This document shows, piece after piece, positions 11,459 through 56,781 of a stretch of DNA of 64,000 nt (its first letter is position 1; each line of letters opens with the position of its first letter). This DNA is from Candidatus Altiarchaeota archaeon (GTDB taxonomy: Archaea > Altiarchaeota > Altiarchaeia > IMC4 > SCGC-AAA252-I15): contig JAZDNF010000009.1 of the NCBI GenBank assembly GCA_043800255.1, positions 224,001 through 288,000 of the forward strand, written 5' to 3'. Under the pieces are notes generated by a model, which was not told the DNA's origin, made no database searches, and saw only the letters and a program-made list of their open reading frames with translations. The position numbers and the translations under genes are program-made.

Positions 11459-12216
11459 TCCTTAGGCAGAACCGTTACGTTGACGCTCTCGTTGCCTAAG
11501 CTGTCTCTGATGCTCTTCTCCAGGCTCTTCCGCCTGCTCTCGGCCATGTCAACGTCCTTGTAACACTGATTTCTGACGTCGGAGTCGGAGATGAGATTGC
11601 ACACTTGCGGGTCAAACTTCTTGGGTGCAACGACCAGATAGCATTGGTCTATCACGCGGGTGGAGTTTATCTTCCCGCAGTCGAGGACCTTCTGGTAGCA
11701 CCAGTCCCTGCCGTTCTGGTTCTCTATCAGGGCGCAATAATTGGAGTCCGTGTTTATTATCGCCAGGCATCTGAACTTGGAGCTGTTGGCGTTGATGCTC
11801 TCGCATGTCTCGTTCCTCTTCTCATAGATGGCTGCCGAGAAGTAGCACTCGTCCCTCTTGACCTCCTCGGATATCCTCAGGCAGATTCTCGAGTTCTTCA
11901 GCTTCTGCGCCAGGAACTTGAAGCACTCGTCAGCCTCGTACGTGTTCTTCACCTGAGTGCACGTTGACGGGTTGTCAGTTACGAACGCGACCTCCCTGAT
12001 GCAGTTGTCCCTCCACAGGTCTACCGACACATCATCGCATACGCTCACGTTGCCGGTTTCAGAGGCATAGTCTATCAGGCACTTGTCCTTGTCAGGCTGG
12101 CCGAGGGTCTCACACGGTTTCAGCGTTGTTGTGGTCGACGCCGGCGTGCCTTCGTTGCAGCCTGCGGTCAGCACGACACCAACCATGATGATGACAAGAC
12201 ATGTGTTAAATTTCAT
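11455..12216 (-). CDS. Lipoprotein-like Cys-rich repeat protein
   Basis: LTAGC lipobox, Thr linker, about 8 repeats of D-x-C-Y/F...C-x-x-I. Confidence 0.75.
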   Translation of the reverse strand: MKFNTCLVIIMVGVVLTAGCNEGTPASTTTTLKPCETLGQPDKDKCLIDYASETGNVSVCDDVSVDLWRDNCIREVAFVTDNPSTCTQVKNTYEADECFKFLAQKLKNSRICLRISEEVKRDECYFSAAIYEKRNETCESINANSSKFRCLAIINTDSNYCALIENQNGRDWCYQKVLDCGKINSTRVIDQCYLVVAPKKFDPQVCNLISDSDVRNQCYKDVDMAESRRKSLEKSIRDSLGNESVNVTVLPKD

Positions 12217-26174: not shown

Positions 26175-26230
26175 GTTTCAGTTTATGTTACAGCTGTTTC
26201 AACAGAGGATAACGTCTGTTTCAACTATGT
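26175..26230 (+). promoter_or_regulatory. GTTTCA triple-repeat operator/promoter, copy 1
   Basis: GTTTCA at 26175, 26196 and 26218 (21 and 22 bp spacing); 53/56 nt identical to 29939-29994. Confidence 0.8.
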
Positions 26231-26267: not shown

Positions 26268-26549
26268 ATGGTAAATGAGACTATTGCAGAAGTTGGAGGA
26301 CGAGTTGCCAGGAACATGACATTTCGCGGCGAACCGTCAGGCTGGAGGGAGCCAGTATTAGGGTTCATTCCAGCGCCACTGTTGTGGAATATCATCGTTG
26401 TCGGCGTTGTTGCCTTGATATTCTGGTGGCTTCTCCGGGGCTCGCAGAAGCACGGTGATACTCCCATGGATCTGCTTAAGAAGAGGTATGTGTCAGGCGA
26501 GATAGACAGGAAGACGTATCTGCAGATGAAGGAAGACATAAAAGATTGA
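26268..26549 (+). CDS. SHOCT-domain membrane protein
   Basis: One TM helix, then DLLKKRYVSGEIDRKTYLQMK; SD GAGGTGA. Confidence 0.85.
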   Translation: MVNETIAEVGGRVARNMTFRGEPSGWREPVLGFIPAPLLWNIIVVGVVALIFWWLLRGSQKHGDTPMDLLKKRYVSGEIDRKTYLQMKEDIKD

Positions 26550-26962
26550 GGATGGAAGTTTCCGAGACTCGGCTTGCGGTCGCCATTAGTTCAGTGTTCC
26601 TACTGGGTATACTGCTTTCCATCCTCAACGGCTATTATGTCGAGGATACTGGTTCTCCGATACCGCTCCTGACGTATGGTGTGGCTGCTGGCGGGATGGT
26701 GGTCGGAGCCCTTATCATACTGTTGTTCCAGTGGAGGATAAGTCAGGCGCAGATTGCGAGCATACTGAAGATACTGCCTGACGATGAGAGAGCAATCGTC
26801 GAACTGCTCCTCAAAGAGAGGAAGATGGAACAGACCTATCTTGTGGCAGAGAGCGGGCTGTCGAAGGTCAAAGTCTCCAGAGTATTGATGAAACTCGAAC
26901 AGAGGAGGATAATCGAAAAAAAGCCTCTGGGGAATACCAACCTTATTAAACTCACAATCTAG
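26546..26962 (+). CDS. Two-TM membrane-anchored winged-HTH regulator
   Basis: Two TM helices, then LPDDERAIV...QTYLVAESGLSKVKVSRVLMKLE...GNTNLI. Confidence 0.8.
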   Translation: MRMEVSETRLAVAISSVFLLGILLSILNGYYVEDTGSPIPLLTYGVAAGGMVVGALIILLFQWRISQAQIASILKILPDDERAIVELLLKERKMEQTYLVAESGLSKVKVSRVLMKLEQRRIIEKKPLGNTNLIKLTI

Positions 26963-29182: not shown

Positions 29183-29231
29183 GTTTCAGTTTTTCTTTCG
29201 GGTGTTTCACCCGATCATAATGTCTGTTTCA
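29183..29231 (+). promoter_or_regulatory. GTTTCA triple-repeat operator/promoter, copy 2
   Basis: GTTTCA at 29183, 29204 and 29226 (21 and 22 bp spacing) with divergent spacers. Confidence 0.8.
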
Positions 29232-29938: not shown

Positions 29939-29994
29939 GTTTCAGTTTCTGTTACAAGTGTTTCAACAGAGGATAACGTCTGTTTCAACTATGT
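29939..29994 (+). promoter_or_regulatory. GTTTCA triple-repeat operator/promoter, copy 3
   Basis: GTTTCA at 29939, 29960 and 29982; near-identical to 26175-26230. Confidence 0.8.
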
Positions 29995-49633: not shown

Positions 49634-51817
49634 TTAAAGCCTCCTGTATTTCAGCGTCAGGGAGTTGGTTACGACCGATACCGAGCTTAACGCCATGGCC
49701 CCGCCGGCGATTATCGGGTTCAGGAGCCATCCTGTGAAGGGGTAGAATACTCCGGCCGCAATCGGTATGCCTATTACGTTGTAAATCAACGCCCAGAACA
49801 TGTTCTGCTTTATCTTGCCCATCGTTGCCTTGCTCAGCCTGAAGGCTTTGACGACGTCAAGGGGGTTGTTTTTCATGAGCACTATGTTCCCAGATTCCAT
49901 CGCAACGTCTGTGCCTGACGCCATCACTATGCCGACGTCAGCCTGCGCCAATGCGGGGGCGTCGTTTATCCCGTCGCCGACCATCGCAACCTTTCTGCCC
50001 CTCGCCTGAAGGTCTCGCACATAGTTTACCTTGTCCTCAGGAAGAACTTCAGAGAAGACGGTCTTTATGCCGACCATTTTTCCGACAGCTTCCGCAGTCC
50101 TCTTGTTGTCGCCTGTTATCATGTACACGTCAATGCCGAGTTTGGTCAATTCCGCCACCGCACCCTTCGCCGTGTCTTTCAGCGTGTCAGCTATCGCGAT
50201 CAACGCCGCCGGGACGTCGTCCACTGCCAGTATCACGACAGTCTTCCCCTCGTCTTCAAGTTTAGTCAGACTGCCTTCAAAGGTTGAAAAGTTTATCCCT
50301 TTTGAGGATATGAGCTTCCTGTTCCCTAGGAGGACGTTCCTGCCCTCTACTTTTGCGGAGACGCCGTGGCCTGGCACAGCCTTGAAGTCCGAGATGTCAG
50401 CCAGCATGATGCCCTTCTCGTTCACATAGTCCAATACGGCTTCAGCCAGAGGATGCTCTGAACTGCGTTCGATGCTGCCTGCGAACTTCAGCGCATCATC
50501 TTCGTTAAGTTCATTCAGGATAACAACGTCTGTCACAGAGGGTGTTCCCTTGGTTATCGTTCCTGTTTTGTCGAACACCAGCGCGTTTATCTTGCGGGTT
50601 GTCTCAAGAGCCTCCCCGCTTTTTATCAGTATCCCTGCGCCGGCTCCCTTCCCTATGCCGACCATTATTGCGGTAGGAGTTGCAAGGCCTAACGCGCACG
50701 GGCAGGATATGACAAGCACTGAGACTGCTATGACAAGCGCGAAGGCGAATGTCTTGCCGATGATGAGATACCACACCCCAAACGAGAGCAATGCTATCAG
50801 TATCACGGCAGGGACGAAGTAGCTTGAGATTACGTCAGCGAAACGCTGTATTGGAGCCTTCGAGCCCTGCGCGTCCTCAACCAGCTTTATTATGTGCGCC
50901 AGAGTGGTGTCCGCCCCCACCTTTGTCGCCCTGAACTGGAAGCTCCCGTGCTTGTTGATTGTTGAGCCTATGACGCTGCTGCCGACCGTTTTTTCGACTG
51001 GTATGCTCTCGCCAGTTATCATGGACTCGTCTATGCTGCTCCCGCCGGAGATTATGACACCGTCCACGGGAATCTTCTCCCCCGGCTTAACAAGCAGTAT
51101 GTCGCCAACCTTCACCTGCTCGACAGGTATGACAACTTCCTTGCCGTCTCTGATTACTGTCGCAGTCTTCGGGCTTAAATCCATGAGCTTCCTTATTGCC
51201 TCGCTCGTCTTCCCCTTGGCTTTGGCTTCCAAGTATTTGCCCACAAGCACGAAGGTTATCAGAACAGCCGCAGTCTCAAAGTACTGGTCCATCATCGGGT
51301 TCACAAGCATGACCGCCACGCTGTAAAAATATGCAGCCGACGTTCCAACTGCTATCAGGGTGTCCATGTTGCTTGTCCTGTTCTTGAGCGCAGCCCAAGC
51401 CCCGCTGTAGAACCTGGCCCCTGATATGAACTGGACAGGAGTCGCAAGAAGGAATAGGAGGTATATGGCATAGGGCACGTCCTCCATGAAGACCATCCCA
51501 ATCAACGCTGCCGGTACGGATAGCATCAGGCTGAATGCGAGCAGCTGCTTCATGCGCGTCAGCTCTCCCTTCTTCTCCAGCTCATCAAAGGACTTGTCAG
51601 CCTCTGTCGAAACCCTTGCACTGTAGCCTCTGTTTTTCACAGCATTGATCAAAACCTGGACTGACGTCTTCGACTCGTCAAATTCTACGACAGCCTTCTC
51701 GGTGCTCAGATTGACGTTCGCGCTGACAACGCCGTCGGTCTTCATCAATGCCTTTTCCAGAACTGTGACACAGCTCGCGCAGTGCATCCCCGTAATGTTC
51801 AACGTGGTCTTTTTCAT
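49634..51817 (-). CDS. copA: Cu(+)-exporting P1B-type ATPase
   Basis: GMHCASC HMA domain, TGES, CPC, DKTGT, SEHP, GDGIND, YN, MALSS. Confidence 0.95.
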
Positions 51818-52308
51818 CCTTGGAAGAACCTTTTTCCAGCCTCCAGGTCCGATTGTTCTATTAAGACATATTGCCCTGAAACTTTATGAGGTAAATCGCT
51901 TGGCCAGCAGCCTCCCCCACGGTTTTCAGTGCCCAGACTGTCTATGCTGAAGTGTCGTCCACACTTGTTGCATACCGCATCATCGCCTGACTGCCTGTAA
52001 CCTAAGCTTCCGCCGCATATTTCACAGGCGTCAAACGCTGTCCTGACCTTACCGTCGCTGCCTAACACGGCCATGTACCTTACTGCAGTCCCGCCTGAAT
52101 TGTAGGTGTACTTTTTTACAGTAGTTGATATTTCGGTTAGGGGAATTCTGACAACCGTGTCAGGAACATCGCCGCCAACGGCTGCAATGCTGCTGTTGAC
52201 TGCATCATCCTGTGTGACCGCCCCCCGGAACCCTATAGCGTAAACTGCTCCGACCAGCAGTACAACTGCCAGTATCAGATAGCCGTTATTCTTGTTCATT
52301 CTGTTCAC
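51814..52308 (-). CDS. DUF2318 (membrane Fe-S-like) protein
   Basis: [22 protein letters not shown]. Confidence 0.85.
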
Positions 52309-52942
52309 CTAGTTCTCCGTCTATGATGTCTGCAAACACGTCGTATGGCTGTGCGCCAACGATTTTCTTTCCTTTGATGAAGAATGTCGGCGTCCCGCTA
52401 ACGCCCAGTCTCTTGCCCTCCGCAAGGTTCTTTTTCACAACATCCTTCTTTGCGCCGGAATCAAGGCACCTGCTGAAATTGTCCGCATCAAGATTCAGCT
52501 CGCCTGCTATGCTCTTTAAAACGTCAGCTTCTCCTATGTCCCTGCCGTTCGCATAATCCTCAAACAGTCTGTCATGGTACTCCCAGAACAGTCCCTGGTC
52601 TCTGGCGCACTCTGACGCCTCAGCCGCCCTGTCGGATCCCGCATGGAACGTCAAGGGAAAATGCTTGAAGACTATCTCGATCCTGCCATCGTATTCGTCC
52701 CTGAGCTGCTCGACAGTCTCTGCCGCTTTCCCGCAGTAGGGGCACTTGAAGTCGCTGTATTCTATGACCTGCAGAATGTTAGACTCGCTGCCAAGCGATT
52801 CTGTCGGCAGAACTTCCGGAGCGGACTGCCCTGCAGTAAATTTGTAAGCCAGCACGACAGCAACCGCTAAAAGGGCAAACGCAAGCGCGTGTTTTCCTTT
52901 AAGCCTACTAGGACTGACGCTATTGTTTTTGTTTTTAGTCAT
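52286..52942 (-). CDS. DsbA/BdbD-family thiol-disulfide oxidoreductase
   Basis: EYSDFKCPYC, KHFPL, GVSGTPTFF, GAQP; ATGA overlap at 52939-52942. Confidence 0.9.
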   Translation of the reverse strand: MTKNKNNSVSPSRLKGKHALAFALLAVAVVLAYKFTAGQSAPEVLPTESLGSESNILQVIEYSDFKCPYCGKAAETVEQLRDEYDGRIEIVFKHFPLTFHAGSDRAAEASECARDQGLFWEYHDRLFEDYANGRDIGEADVLKSIAGELNLDADNFSRCLDSGAKKDVVKKNLAEGKRLGVSGTPTFFIKGKKIVGAQPYDVFADIIDGELGEQNEQE

Positions 52943-54405
52943 CTTCCGCCTCCGCAGCCGCAGCCTCCGCCGCATGAACCGCCCCGGGGAACCTGCACGC
53001 TGGCAAGCTCCGTCTGAACCTGCGCCGCATCCTGGATGTTGACATCATCTTTGACGATGAATACTCCAGGTATCATGCCCATCCAGCAGCTCCAGGGTAT
53101 TGTGCCCGCTTCTGTTGGAGTGAACTCTATGGTCTGCAGGCCGGGTTTTATGTCAAACCTTAAACCAAGTTTTGGAACCTGTATGGCCCTGTTGCAGTTG
53201 GTAATCTCTATGCCGTTTATAACCCATTTGACCGGAACGCCCTTCTTCAGTATGAACTTGTCCGGCACCCACCCATAGCTGGTGACGTTCATCTGAATCT
53301 CCTGGTAGCCGTCTTTTAGCGTTACCTGAGAACTTCCGCCAGCCGGGACCGATGCCGCGTCCTTCGCGGAGACTGACATGAAAAGCGTGTTCGCATCATA
53401 TCCTGAGCCTGTCAGCGCAAGACCGCGGTTTACCATTATAAGTCCCAGTATGACAACCACAACGCCTGACAACTTCAGTATCTTGTGAGTAAACTGGGAG
53501 CTTACCATCGAGGATACGATTCCGAAGCCCAGCAGAACCGGCAGCGTCCCAAGACCGAACGCCATCAGGTACAGGGCGCCCCAGTATGGTGACCCTGACG
53601 CTGCTGCGAATATGTAAACAGCCTGCAGCGGACCGCAAGCCAGCATGAGGCCGTTCAATAATCCTATGGCAAGCGGACTGCGCGATTTTTCTGATTTCCT
53701 CTCGATGAACTTTTCCAGGGGAGATGGCATCTTAAGCCTGAATCTCCTGAACCACCTGAACAGGTTGAGCATGTTCAGGCCGAACATGATAAGGAAAATC
53801 CCTGCAAGTATTCCTGCAGCTCCCCGCATCACCGGCGTGAACGTTATAAACGAGCCCAAAAGGCCGAAAAATCCTCCCAACAGGGTATATGATGCTGTTT
53901 TGCCGAAACCGTAGGAGAGATGCGCCCTGAGATCCGAGCCAACCCTCCCCTGCGATGCATTTTTTGCGGTATAGGATATCACAAATCCGCCGCACATTGC
54001 AATGCAGTGGAATCCTGTCAGCAACCCTACCAGGAATAGAAGCCCAAGTGATGCGTCTTGGCCTATTGTCGGAAAGGAAAAGTCGGATTTTTTTTCAAGC
54101 TCGGAGTATGCGAACAGCGCGATGAGAACCAGCCCAAGCGTTAACGATATGAACCGGTAATCAACAGTTCTCGGCTGCTTCTCCCTGCCTTTCAATCTGC
54201 AATTGTATCCTTTAGCCTCGATTTTTTTCAGGATTCTTCCCTTGTCAGTGATATTCGGATCATACGTTACCTCGCCCTTGCCTGTCGCATAATCAATCCT
54301 GGCTTCCTTAACCCCATATTCGGACAATGCAGCCTTTGCTATGATCTTCTCGCAGCTCTGGCATTCCATGTCGTCTGTCTGAAAGTTGAATTTTGATTCT
54401 GCCAT
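52939..54405 (-). CDS. HMA, DsbD_2/TauE-like membrane and cupredoxin-like fusion protein
   Basis: MECQSC, GFHCIAMCG, ACGPLQ, WSCWMGM, tail GGSCGGGCGCGG. Confidence 0.85.
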   Translation of the reverse strand: MAESKFNFQTDDMECQSCEKIIAKAALSEYGVKEARIDYATGKGEVTYDPNITDKGRILKKIEAKGYNCRLKGREKQPRTVDYRFISLTLGLVLIALFAYSELEKKSDFSFPTIGQDASLGLLFLVGLLTGFHCIAMCGGFVISYTAKNASQGRVGSDLRAHLSYGFGKTASYTLLGGFFGLLGSFITFTPVMRGAAGILAGIFLIMFGLNMLNLFRWFRRFRLKMPSPLEKFIERKSEKSRSPLAIGLLNGLMLACGPLQAVYIFAAASGSPYWGALYLMAFGLGTLPVLLGFGIVSSMVSSQFTHKILKLSGVVVVILGLIMVNRGLALTGSGYDANTLFMSVSAKDAASVPAGGSSQVTLKDGYQEIQMNVTSYGWVPDKFILKKGVPVKWVINGIEITNCNRAIQVPKLGLRFDIKPGLQTIEFTPTEAGTIPWSCWMGMIPGVFIVKDDVNIQDAAQVQTELASVQVPRGGSCGGGCGCGGGR

Positions 54406-54410
54406 TTTTC

Positions 54411-54614
54411 TTATCCTACTGTGTACCCCAGCTCCCGCACAGCTTCCTTCAGCTTTTCAGCAGGAACCGAATCCGCGCATTCGATGTGCACCGCCCCGCT
54501 GGTGTGGTCTGCCGTTACCTTGGTAACTCCCGGCATTTCCAACAGAGTGTCAGCTATAAGTATGCCGCAGCTCTTGCAGTGCATGCCTTTGACATTGAGG
54601 TCAATCTTGACCAT
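54411..54614 (-). CDS. CopZ-like heavy-metal chaperone
   Basis: VKGMHCKSC...ELGY. Confidence 0.9.
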   Translation of the reverse strand: MVKIDLNVKGMHCKSCGILIADTLLEMPGVTKVTADHTSGAVHIECADSVPAEKLKEAVRELGYTVG

Positions 54615-54628
54615 GGAATCTTATTGTA

Positions 54629-54666
54629 TGAAACCGACTATTAGCAGATGGGTGAAACCAGTTTCA
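54629..54666 (-). promoter_or_regulatory. GTTTCA-type sites upstream of the copper operon
   Basis: TGAAAC at 54629 and 54653 (GTTTCA on the - strand) plus inverted GTTTCA at 54661. Confidence 0.6.
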
Positions 54667-54667
54667 G

Positions 54668-55150
54668 TCACTTGAGAACGACTATGTTGGTAGGGCCTCT
54701 TCGCTTTCTCTCGATAAGCTGCAGGGATTCCAGCTTGTCCAATGTCCGGGTTGCCTTGACTTTTGACATTCCGAGCTTTTCCACGATCTCGCTCTGGAAC
54801 ATGGCGCCGTCAGAGTCCATCAAAAGTCTGTAGATGTCGCGTTCAGTCCCCCTTAATTTGCCCAGTTTTTCGGACCATGCCTCCTTCCCTGAAGGTTTCT
54901 CAAACGGCCCACCGCCTTTGAAGAAGAGGATGAGACCTATCAGCATCGTGATTACTACGGCAAAGATCCCCACGTAGACCGTCGGAGGTATCTTGAACTC
55001 CTGCATCGTGCAGACGTCACCGCATGTGCAGGATGATGCCGCCTGCGAACTAAGTGAGTCGATGAACATGAAGATCATCAGGGCAAACACCAGAGCCATC
55101 AGTGTGAGAACCGCCCCAACCGCCTTGAATGTGAGTTTTACTGGCTTCAT
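54668..55150 (-). CDS. Two-TM membrane-anchored winged-HTH regulator with an extracellular CxCxxxC loop
   Basis: TM-SCTCGDVCTM-TM, then ERDIYRLL...QSEIVEKLGMSKVKATRTLDKLE...GPTNIV. Confidence 0.82.
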   Translation of the reverse strand: MKPVKLTFKAVGAVLTLMALVFALMIFMFIDSLSSQAASSCTCGDVCTMQEFKIPPTVYVGIFAVVITMLIGLILFFKGGGPFEKPSGKEAWSEKLGKLRGTERDIYRLLMDSDGAMFQSEIVEKLGMSKVKATRTLDKLESLQLIERKRRGPTNIVVLK

Positions 55151-55216
55151 TTCCGGATTATTATAAGTTAACCATCGTTAATAAACTGATAGTATCCAAC
55201 GGCACAGTAACCCCCA

Positions 55217-56071
55217 TCATATCACCTTGTGAATCCTGTCGATGTTCCTGTAGGCTAATGCCACAAACAGCAGGTAAAGCGCATAGGAGGCGGCCTCCAG
55301 GAGAGACGGGTTCCCGTTGTATCCTAATAGGTCCTTAGCCAGTCCGCCGATTAGGCCGTTCTCGTGCAATAGAGGATAGCTTCCATCAGGGTTCTGCGGG
55401 GGATTCACATCCCACAAATGCTCGATATATGTTGGCAGGACGCCTGCCTCCTGAAGCTCGTGGACGCCGTGCGCGACAAGGCCTGCCGCGAAAAGCACCA
55501 AGACGATGCTCGTGGCCTGGAAGAACTTCCTGACGTCCAGCTTCCTGGCCTGGACGAAGATGATGAACCCCAACGCCAATGCGAGGATTATTCCAAGGAA
55601 TCCGCCCACAATCCTGTCGTATGCGGTCGCCTCCCCTGCAAGCGAGCTGGCTCCCAGGAAGATTACGGTCTCCACGCCCTCCCTGAGGACGGAGACGAAC
55701 ACTAAGGCAAAGAGTCCGAGCCTGTGGCCCTCTGATATTTCATGGCCGACCTTCTGCTCTATCTCCTCCCTTATGTGAGTCTGCCTCATCATCCACAATA
55801 TCATGGTGGTCAGAAGCAGCGCAGCGAACAGCATCACGACGCCCTCGAATATTTCCTCGCTCCGACCTGAGAAACCGCCTGCCAGAGTATTGAAGCCATA
55901 CGCAGCGATTATGCTGCCAACGACTGCCGACACAATCGCAAGGTAGATCACAGAATTGTATTTTGATTGTTTCGTGCGCTCAAGGTAAGCTAGCACTATC
56001 CCTATGACCAGCGCCGCCTCAAGCGTCTCCCTGAAGGTTATGATCAACTCCGATAGCATGTCAGATATCAA
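55217..56071 (-). CDS. FTR1-family iron permease
   Basis: RETLE and REGVE (RExxE) motifs, HELQEAG, LLGY. Confidence 0.92.
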   Translation of the reverse strand: MISDMLSELIITFRETLEAALVIGIVLAYLERTKQSKYNSVIYLAIVSAVVGSIIAAYGFNTLAGGFSGRSEEIFEGVVMLFAALLLTTMILWMMRQTHIREEIEQKVGHEISEGHRLGLFALVFVSVLREGVETVIFLGASSLAGEATAYDRIVGGFLGIILALALGFIIFVQARKLDVRKFFQATSIVLVLFAAGLVAHGVHELQEAGVLPTYIEHLWDVNPPQNPDGSYPLLHENGLIGGLAKDLLGYNGNPSLLEAASYALYLLFVALAYRNIDRIHKVI

Positions 56072-56118: not shown

Positions 56119-56781
56119 TCAGTATGCCAGGTACAGCCTGAGGAAATAGGCGCCTGCCAGCATCAGGAAAAAGGATGATAATGTCTCCACTTTTCTGATA
56201 TTGTTCCTGAGCCAGCCTATCCTGTCGAGAGAGTAGGCCGATGATATGCCCAACGCAAGTATTGGAAGCCCCAAGCTTATCGAGAACAATGCCATGAGAG
56301 CCAATCCCTGGAGGTAAGTGACCTTGGACGCGAGGACAGGCATTATCCCAGTGACAAGGAACGGGGCGCTGCAAGGCGTTATCATGGTGCCGAAACCCAG
56401 CCCTGAGATGAATGCCCCCCCTCTGCCGGAGTAGTTGAACGTGTTGAAGATTACGGCAGTCCTCTTCAGCGTTCTCAGGCGGAACAGCGTGTCCAGCGCG
56501 AAATAGAATGACAGCACTGCCGCAACCAGGAAGAGGATGGTTTTCTTCTCGTCGATGCTCTCAGCCAGGCTCCAGCCGTATGCCATTATTAGTATGGCAA
56601 GAAGAGAGTAGAACAGCATATAAGCCAGGATGAGGCCCCCGGCGAAGAGCAATACTGACGCCCGTCTCCTATCGGAGTTCCTGGAGAGTATGTTGAACAG
56701 TATCGGATAGGTCGGGAGGAGGCAGGATGTCGTACCGGCGAGAAGGCCTGAGGTGACGGCGATGACCGCGAGGTCTATCAT
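56119..56781 (-). CDS. CcdA/DsbD-type membrane electron transporter
   Basis: SCLLPTYP and TPCSAP; six TM helices. Confidence 0.8.
   Translation of the reverse strand: MIDLAVIAVTSGLLAGTTSCLLPTYPILFNILSRNSDRRRASVLLFAGGLILAYMLFYSLLAILIMAYGWSLAESIDEKKTILFLVAAVLSFYFALDTLFRLRTLKRTAVIFNTFNYSGRGGAFISGLGFGTMITPCSAPFLVTGIMPVLASKVTYLQGLALMALFSISLGLPILALGISSAYSLDRIGWLRNNIRKVETLSSFFLMLAGAYFLRLYLAY

Follow-up and report, generated by a model that had tools for sequence, protein, structure and literature searches.

Which factor controls the copper operon that lies within a 64,000-nucleotide stretch of an Altiarchaeota genome (Candidatus Altiarchaeota archaeon, contig JAZDNF010000009.1, positions 224,001 to 288,000; hereafter the window), and what does that factor sense? 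Directly ahead of copZ, on the same strand, the window encodes a 160-residue protein with two hydrophobic stretches and a C-terminal winged helix-turn-helix (wHTH) domain, which we refer to as the regulator. A sequence-only reading of this DNA had proposed that (i) a Cys loop between the two transmembrane (TM) segments senses copper or redox state outside the cell, and (ii) the cytoplasmic wHTH controls the genes from copZ to copA by way of GTTTCA sites in the short gap before copZ. We consider it probable that, as a membrane-tethered one-component regulator, the protein controls a leaderless cop promoter, and that its outside Cys/His/Met loop senses copper or a copper-driven thiol state. A more specific version, to which we would give slightly less than an even chance, holds that the nine-residue tip senses Cu(I), that the TATA element is clamped from the membrane, that this is the main copper regulator of DPANN archaea, and that it belongs to a wider hairpin-wHTH family in which tips are swapped.

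The translated open reading frame (ORF) has the layout that had been described, TM-SCTCGDVCTM-TM: the segment SSCTCGDVCTMQEF lies between the two hydrophobic stretches, and the C-terminal wHTH contains MSKVKATRTLDKLE. Residues 103-159 belong to Pfam DUF7343 (PF24034), with a score of 44.3 bits against a gathering cut-off of 27.6. Other Pfam matches of the wHTH are weaker and of the MarR/TrmB/ArsR type (eight families in all are matched at E <= 0.01); PF01047 (MarR) reaches 26.4 bits (cut-off 24.6) over 36 residues only, and PF12802 stays at 26.9 bits, below its cut-off of 27. No NCBIfam model scored above its cut-off on the regulator (Lrs14, 26.8 bits versus 90). An AlphaFold2 (AF2) model built from a 149-sequence family alignment has a mean pLDDT of 92.7 and consists of a helix (residues 8-40), a short structured tip (41-55), a second helix (56-78) and the wHTH (102-159); the cytoplasmic linker of about 20 residues is its lowest-confidence part, with a pLDDT of ~70 at residues 81-90. 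Foldseek comparison with the PDB gave weak matches that cover the wHTH part alone (CodY, MftR, SrnR, pI258 CadC, MarR and CzrA; E 1.4e-3 to 2e-2), and for the full regulator it gave nothing at E <= 0.001 and no full-length structural relative. A two-copy complex prediction scored 0.39, against a mark of 0.42, and is counted neither for nor against a dimer.

The N-terminal 78 residues form a membrane hairpin, and nothing follows the wing at the C-terminus. Lys residues (K2, K5 and K9) precede TM1, the loop is net negative, and residues 78-101 hold six Lys or Arg versus three Asp or Glu; on a positive-inside reading, the N-terminus is predicted to be cytoplasmic. We place the Cys tip outside the cell because the DNA-binding domain has to be cytoplasmic. 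The cytoplasmic part of the protein contains neither Cys nor His.

The regulator belongs to a sizeable archaeal family. Relatives are encoded in at least 532 of 592 stretches picked out by pattern matching in species genomes; a 90%-clustered collection yielded 156 relatives at E <= 1e-3 among 200 candidates, and a 50%-clustered library 640 clusters at E <= 1e-3 and 238 at E <= 1e-10. Relatives carry the labels Altiarchaeota, Micrarchaeia, Nano-, Woese-, Pace-, Aenigmat-, Nanohal-, Iain- and Undinarchaeota, and two are labelled as methanogens. The nearest, at 44-55% identity, are Altiarchaeota-labelled, and within this phylum the family is patchy, with a match at E <= 1e-10 in 26 of 61 genomes. 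In public records, close relatives are named 'MarR family transcriptional regulator', 'uncharacterized membrane protein' or 'hypothetical protein'. Locus counts given below refer to the best 80 of the at least 532 relative-encoding stretches, which are contigs from one genome per species. The TM/Cys loop/TM/wHTH layout is present in 80/80 of these loci, an operator-like site with at most one mismatch in 65/80, and a downstream copA in 47/80; the window has all three.

The loop Cys, on which the proposed sensing depends, proved to be conserved. The pair is kept in 80/80 genome loci and in 133 of 143 full-length representatives at 50% identity, and in the 149-sequence alignment conservation at C41 and C47 reaches 90% or more, as in few other columns outside the winged helix. 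Conservation across the family is limited to these two outer Cys. The middle one, C43, is specific to the Altiarchaeota-like clade of the window, which has C-x-C-G-D-x-C-x-M; most of the relatives labelled Nano-, Woese- and Pacearchaeota, which make up the bulk of the 80 loci, have C-[ST]-H-G-x-x-C-x-M, with His, another soft-metal ligand, usually replacing the middle Cys. Among 134 diverse representatives, the residue at the C43 position is Leu in 28, Cys in 23 and His in 22, Pro follows the second Cys in 89, and two positions beyond the second Cys there is a His in 46 and a Met in 25. In 107 of the 134, an additional His, Met or Cys lies within the loop or immediately behind it, and His makes up 7.1% of loop residues versus 1.2% protein-wide in the representatives (about sixfold enrichment). 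Within the Cys-bearing family, the idea that loop type predicts cop linkage was rejected, as the same loop types occur by eye with and without cop genes.

We then consider the DNA between the regulator and copZ. The two coding-strand GTTTCA copies 24 bp apart and the single inverted copy noted there by the sequence-only reading are at 54629-54634 (-), 54653-54658 (-) and 54661-54666 (+). GTTTCA occurs 44 times in the window versus 31.4 +/- 5.7 times in shuffled sequence, none of 100 shuffles reaching 44; three copies in a 53-bp gap are not a chance result, because about 0.04 copies would be expected at the density of the window. What matters is the composite of a 14-bp palindrome and one half-site, with a TATA-like box bracketed between the two. 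On the coding strand, the regulator TGA is followed by 1 nt, TGAAAC-TG-GTTTCA, 9 nt, TAATAG, 3 nt, GTTTCA, 14 nt and the copZ ATG. Archaeal promoters obey an established rule for the distance from TATA box to start; the usual distance corresponds to the ~26 nt found here between the TATA-like box and the copZ ATG, and a leaderless mRNA is therefore predicted. The possibility that the palindrome is an RNA hairpin or terminator was rejected: a loop of 2 nt is too short, a 6-bp stem with such a loop forms no stable RNA hairpin, and a site acting at the DNA level is thus the natural reading. We make no claim of autoregulation, since no GTTTCA is seen in the 66-bp gap upstream of the regulator and a site lies upstream in 2/65 loci.

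The arrangement is conserved. The exact palindrome TGAAACNNGTTTCA is single in the 1.75-Mb genome assembly to which the window belongs and occurs in 45 of the 80 loci, one copy each, i.e., 45 sites in 1.18 Mb versus ~0.07 expected under equal base use. Palindromes with at most one mismatch lie near the regulator (from 400 nt upstream of its start to 3 kb downstream of its stop) in 65 of the 80. Of these 65 sites, 40 start between -5 and +120 nt from the regulator stop, 23 lie further downstream and two upstream; in 12 loci the stop codon itself supplies the first bases of the site. The 45 exact sites have the consensus palindrome - cACAA..g. - TTATAA - ggt - GTTTCAT, with a TATA-like element at +9 in 29, GTTTC at +18 in 33 and the start codon of an ORF of at least 45 residues at +37 to +39 in 22. 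The corresponding positions in the window are +9, +18 and +38. The TGAAAC sites invoked by the proposal are thus conserved, in fixed geometry to TATA, half-site and start codon.

Linkage to copper genes extends beyond the window. Using the window's own proteins in tblastn searches over a range of 10 kb, we found copA downstream on the same strand in 47/80 loci, and upstream or divergent in two more. If only the 58 loci are counted for which 5 kb or more of downstream sequence is available, copA is found in 41 and a cop gene of any kind in 42. For a genome of ~1 Mb with one copA, we estimate the chance of finding copA within 10 kb at ~1%. As a second view of the regulon, we surveyed the first ORF after each of the 65 sites that have a TATA-like element and no more than one mismatch. 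HMA-containing proteins are the largest recognisable group (21/65), followed by DsbA/thioredoxin (4/65), FtrD-like proteins (3/65), DsbD_2 (2/65) and the regulator itself (2/65); one first ORF encodes an ABC ATPase and one a dihydroorotate dehydrogenase, the latter probably behind a chance one-mismatch site. Three first ORFs have a sub-threshold Pfam match only, and 28 have no Pfam match.

Does the palindrome belong to the regulator? Three indirect lines suggest that it does: co-occurrence, joint variation of recognition helix and promoter subtype, and a conserved position at the regulator's own stop codon. Within the phylum, the palindrome is found in 18 of 26 genomes with a regulator-family match versus 3 of 35 without one, and a control pattern matches in 3 of 61 genomes. 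In 14 genomes of the phylum, site and regulator share a contig and lie no more than 2 kb apart. The third half-site accompanies 45 of 54 regulators with a KV-K/R recognition helix versus 0 of 10 with a KV-G helix, in a tally that leaves out the 16 of 80 loci with no site or an unparsed helix.

Relatives that lack the loop Cys offer a further comparison. Three DUF7343 genes are present in the genome of the window. One, at 26546-26962, encodes a paralogue that is 44% identical to the regulator over 57 residues and has no loop Cys; its recognition helix had been called almost identical to that of the regulator, and it is (LSKVKVSRVLMKLE versus SKVKATRTLDKLE). This paralogue is not next to cop genes and sits behind arrays of direct GTTTCA repeats. 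There are three such arrays, each of three repeats 21-22 bp apart (26175-26223, 29183-29231 and 29939-29987), one of them upstream of the operon of the Cys-less paralogue. As the half-site is the same in the arrays and the cop operator, cross-talk between the two regulators is conceivable. The third protein (L003:1320-2294 (-), contig C3) has 324 residues, with a signal peptide, an ectodomain of ~190 residues, one TM helix, a charged linker and a C-terminal wHTH, and its gene adjoins a large surface-protein-like gene. This small genome would thus have three membrane-tethered wHTH proteins of three topologies.

Three other genomes of the same order (L084-L086; G027:C70, G052:C110 and G022:C42) encode TM-loop-TM-wHTH relatives of 148-163 residues whose loops have no Cys. 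The same palindrome/TATA-like/GTTTCA design directly follows the regulator stop codon in each, and the genes downstream encode large secreted proteins of unassigned function (329-754 residues); tblastn with the window's cop proteins gave no match there. These loci indicate that the DNA-binding half and the half-site are common family-wide and that the Cys tip goes with a metal or thiol regulon. The contrast, correlative and drawn from a small number of loci, is the best available support for the tip as the sensor.

Taken together, the observations suggest the following scheme, in which binding of the regulator to DNA, binding of metal and the sign of regulation are all predictions. The two TM helices would form a hairpin that carries the tip C41-x-C43-G-x-x-C47-x-M49 outside the cell, with the wHTH in the cytoplasm on its linker of ~20 residues. 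A dimer would occupy the 14-bp palindrome, abutting the TFB recognition element (BRE)/TATA region, and a further subunit the GTTTCA half-site 18 nt on, so that both sites bracket the TBP/TFB site. Because one site lies between TATA and start, we lean slightly toward repression without signal over activation; archaeal sites in that position are typically repressive. The most likely signal is Cu(I), which, bound by the outside Cys/Cys(His)/Cys/Met loop, would re-orient the TM helices, change the spacing of the winged helices and release the promoter, which would switch on copZ, the HMA-DsbD_2-cupredoxin fusion, DsbA, the FtrD-like protein and CopA. An operator beside the regulator's own gene fits a membrane-bound protein, because the protein would be inserted beside the DNA to be bound.

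The proposal of a membrane regulator with a Cys loop for copZ to copA is supported overall, having come through on Cys conservation, copper linkage and conservation of the TGAAAC sites. Several points weigh against it, or against its copper-specific form. No cop gene lies within 10 kb in 16 of the 58 well-flanked loci, where mostly DsbA-like or unannotated genes are found. The 28 first genes without a Pfam match, together with the three sub-threshold ones, indicate that the regulon is not purely cop. The operator is not in itself specific for copper, as Cys-less relatives use the same palindrome. Family members differ in the spacing of the two conserved Cys (3 to 14 residues) and widely in the residues in between; a disulfide or a loose thiol switch accounts for this no less well than a defined metal site does. 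A third soft ligand is missing from 27 of 134 representatives, and the Cys pair from 10 of 143. We infer the regulator dimer from the palindrome only. Finally, related genomes are not independent, and the counts overstate statistical weight and are to be read as patterns rather than probabilities.

The main rival to Cu(I) binding keeps the regulator and the operator and makes the loop a thiol-disulfide switch: envelope oxidative stress, whether copper-catalysed or of other origin, would oxidise the Cys pair, DsbA/DsbD_2 would reset it, and its oxidation state would set promoter occupancy. The operon does encode DsbA-like and DsbD_2 proteins, a CcdA-type DsbD_TM protein is encoded upstream on the same strand, and DsbA/thioredoxin genes, besides coming first after the operator in four loci, are the only recognisable neighbours in several cop-less loci. 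A disulfide would also tolerate the variable Cys-Cys spacing, and the periplasmic Cys pairs that we take to regulate ToxR and CadC are a precedent. However, a plain disulfide needs no additional ligands, whereas His, Met or a third Cys stands at fixed positions (C+2, second Cys +2) in 107 of 134 representatives, and the dominant regulon members are HMA proteins and CopA. The metagenome run labels, moreover, are of an anoxic groundwater type, a setting in which Cu(I) and reduced thiols would be expected. On balance we regard this switch as unlikely, though it is the alternative that fares best.

We think it improbable that the loop Cys are structural only, as a staple or a Zn site, with the signal arriving by another route: Cu-loaded CopZ/HMA, the HMA-DsbD_2 protein, cytoplasmic copper acting at the linker or wHTH, or release of the wHTH by regulated proteolysis. 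HMA proteins are encoded beside the regulator in many loci and the low-confidence linker of ~20 residues could be a contact or cleavage site, but the cytoplasmic part lacks Cys and His, and the presence of Cys tracks a metal or thiol regulon. Moreover, Cys-less hairpin relatives keep the operator design and the paralogue is also Cys-less, so Cys is not needed for the hairpin. That another factor binds the palindrome, or that the palindrome is non-regulatory, the membrane wHTH having a different target, is very improbable: the three palindrome-bearing genomes of 35 without a regulator-family match would favour it but only equal the background of the control pattern (3/61), the site abuts the regulator stop codon in 40/65 loci, helix subtype co-varies with promoter subtype, and the short stem and 2-nt loop leave a DNA-level site as the natural reading.

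Known copper regulators do not account for the locus. CsoR-family proteins (Trns_repr_metal, PF02583) gave no match in the regulator or in its genome (a 93%-complete assembly), which contains a single Cu-type P1B ATPase by tblastn. Pfam finds no TRASH domain in the regulator, and genome-wide there is one sub-threshold match (22.5 bits versus 27), in a frame that we take from its sequence to be ribosomal protein L24e. CopR of Pyrococcus furiosus is an archaeal copper-homeostasis regulator whose gene lies next to copA/copZ-type genes (PMC7830388). The 160-residue protein shares the position beside copA/copZ-type genes with CopR and CopT; their TRASH-HTH fusion is absent from it. CopR and CopT are soluble and sense cytoplasmic copper by a C-terminal TRASH domain. 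The bacterial sensor kinases CusS and CopS detect extracytoplasmic copper with a part located between two TM helices and activate genes for export. As histidine kinases, they need a separate response regulator, whereas here sensing and DNA binding would be combined in one 160-residue chain. MarR and ArsR-SmtB proteins (E. coli MarR, CzrA, pI258 CadC) have the wHTH fold in common with the regulator; they are soluble dimers, formed via N-/C-terminal helices or with an alpha-5 metal site, whereas here a membrane hairpin precedes the wHTH and no cytoplasmic ligand residues are present. In this layout the regulator departs from MarR proper, defined as a soluble all-helical dimer via N-/C-terminal helices.

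Proteins that carry a DNA-binding domain and a TM region in one chain and act from the membrane are known as the transmembrane transcription regulator (TTR) class (PMC10269533). With a wHTH and two hydrophobic helices, the regulator fits the sequence definition of this class (a predicted DNA-binding domain and at least one predicted TM region). A census of the class counts 1,384 archaeal TTRs and, in its supplements, 273 TTRs of the MarR_2 type; its main text mentions neither copper nor MarR, DPANN, cysteine or metal, and its supplements contain none of three DPANN phylum names sought (PMC10269533). Bacterial TTRs such as ToxR, TcpP and CadC are likewise membrane-resident one-component proteins with a cytoplasmic winged helix and an extracytoplasmic sensing part (PMC10269533). 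They differ in having an N-terminal OmpR-type domain, one TM helix and a large periplasmic domain, whereas here a two-helix hairpin with a 15-residue tip precedes a C-terminal MarR-like wHTH; the OmpR-type Trans_reg_C domain is not among the eight Pfam families matched by the regulator (E <= 0.01), and its DNA-binding domain is C-terminal. Regulatory periplasmic Cys pairs are known in ToxR and CadC. To our knowledge, none of ToxR, TcpP and CadC is a copper sensor.

Archaea also have membrane-bound one-component transcription factors in ArnR and ArnR1 of Sulfolobus acidocaldarius (PMC6396743). These two regulate archaellum and pili genes and differ in having no Cys loop, no metal genes and another operator. 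In ArnR and ArnR1 the HTH is N-terminal and the TM segments are C-terminal. Our literature search, which did not extend to subscription journals or the latest weeks, found no description of DUF7343, of the 14-bp consensus or of archaeal or DPANN membrane copper regulators. The claim that a transmembrane archaeal copper sensor would be new therefore holds as far as that search reaches, the TTR class itself being already known, in archaea too.

If the more specific version is right, the regulator would be a new kind of metal sensor, and a swap of its tip would re-wire the same promoter design to other signals; the Cys-less relatives that share this design suggest such a modular sensor family. 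The known archaeal copper regulators that we found are soluble and cytoplasmic, whereas here a signal would pass from outside to DNA through one small chain and without a kinase, a minimal model for membrane-tethered control of a TBP/TFB promoter. The family and operator are conserved in hundreds of DPANN genomes, from organisms that are not yet genetically tractable, and the predicted triple of regulator, operator and regulon would provide a direct handle on their gene regulation. It also points to several unannotated Cys-rich membrane proteins as possible parts of a copper/thiol envelope defence.

Table 1. Positions of the regulator, the putative operator and promoter elements, the copper operon and the upstream genes in the window.
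Feature	Position	Strand	Basis or remark
Membrane-tethered wHTH regulator (predicted), 160 residues	54668-55150	-	ORF; Pfam DUF7343 (PF24034); AF2 model
TM1, residues 10-30	55061-55123	-	Sequence, hydropathy scan, AF2 helix 8-40
Loop motif C41-T-C43-G-D-V-C47-T-M49, candidate extracytoplasmic metal/thiol sensor	55004-55030	-	Read from sequence
TM2, residues 56-77	54920-54985	-	Sequence, AF2 helix 56-78
Cytoplasmic wHTH, residues 102-159, recognition helix SKVKATRTLDKLE	54674-54847	-	Pfam, AF2, Foldseek
14-bp palindromic putative operator TGAAAC-NN-GTTTCA	54653-54666	.	Begins 1 nt past regulator stop codon
TATA-like box TAATAG	54638-54643	-	9 nt past palindrome; centre ~26 nt before copZ ATG
Third half-site GTTTCA	54629-54634	-	18 nt past palindrome, between TATA-like box and copZ start
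CopZ-like HMA metallochaperone, 67 residues, MHCKSC	54411-54614	-	Pfam HMA, E 1.3e-12; NCBIfam CopZ models below cut-offs
HMA + DsbD_2 membrane + cupredoxin-like fusion, 488 residues	52939-54405	-	Pfam
DsbA-like thioredoxin-fold protein, 229 residues	52286-52975	-	Pfam DSBA, E 2.5e-28
FtrD-like Cys-rich membrane protein, 164 residues	51814-52308	-	Pfam PF10080, E 4.1e-25; stop overlaps copA start
CopA, Cu(I)-type P1B ATPase, 727 residues, N-terminal HMA; CPC, YN, MALSS	49634-51817	-	TIGR01511
FTR1/EfeU-like permease	55217-56071	-	Pfam/NCBIfam; directly upstream of regulator
CcdA-type DsbD_TM protein	56119-56781	-	Pfam; same-strand run upstream
Cys-rich protein, 230 residues	56778-57470	-	No Pfam or NCBIfam match; same-strand run
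Protein with CxxC motif, 280 residues	57501-58343	-	Same-strand run

The span from copZ to copA had been delimited correctly: copZ, the HMA-DsbD_2-cupredoxin fusion, the DsbA-like gene, the FtrD-like gene and copA all lie on the minus strand, and several adjacent genes share a few bases, as genes of an operon would be expected to do (Table 1). Among public sequencing runs, no RNA run covers 51800-55300, and four DNA runs of one study match small shares of it. CopA scores 653.7 bits against the TIGR01511 copper-translocating model (cut-off 397), which places it in the P1B-1 group; its CPC, YN and MALSS motifs presumably mark the same specificity. By their sequences, the 488-residue fusion and the adjacent DsbA resemble a copper-linked envelope thiol-redox module, which we take to be akin to bacterial Scs systems. 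Alignments of at least 300 residues to the fusion occur beside the regulator or copA in 27/80 loci. The FtrD-like protein has an N-terminal TM helix and CEICGG...CNKCG motifs, and matches to it occur in 13/80 loci, with the gene first after the operator in 3/65.

The idea that the regulator always heads the operon was rejected, as its closest relatives (L005-L008) have 1.6-4 kb of other genes before the operator and copZ. One of these loci (L006:10524-12106) encodes a cysteine desulfurase-like protein (379 residues) and an IscU/NifU-like protein (148 residues) between the regulator and the operator/copZ, both names being read from sequence. In the window itself, same-strand genes precede the regulator, namely those for FTR1, CcdA and two more proteins. 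The FTR1-like permease upstream of the regulator recurs in the same arrangement in L046 and L081 only, among the 80 loci. The Cys-rich protein of 230 residues has a paralogue, 27% identical, at 11554-12108 of the window (genome C7:235554-236108).

Many of the unannotated first ORFs after the site belong to two Cys-rich families. Members of the first, of ~220 residues and without a Pfam match, have one TM helix, a C-E-Y-C-C-G-A...A-C-G-C-A-H-S-Y-A-M motif and a C-terminal MVGGC (L012:10523-11182, L041:3795-4469, L044:10542-11219, L059:5514-6161 and others). In the promoter variant without the third half-site, which goes with KV-G-type regulators, the gene that comes first behind the palindrome belongs to this family. 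Members of the second, of 200-300 residues and also without a Pfam match, have an N-terminal CC, a GLIPH-x-GCIAF membrane motif, an IPCPGHAPLI domain and often a Gly/Cys-rich tail (L010:6262-6957, L017:10578-11279, L045:10617-11396, L080:10570-11343 and L068:10546-11439); their genes lie between the operator and copA.

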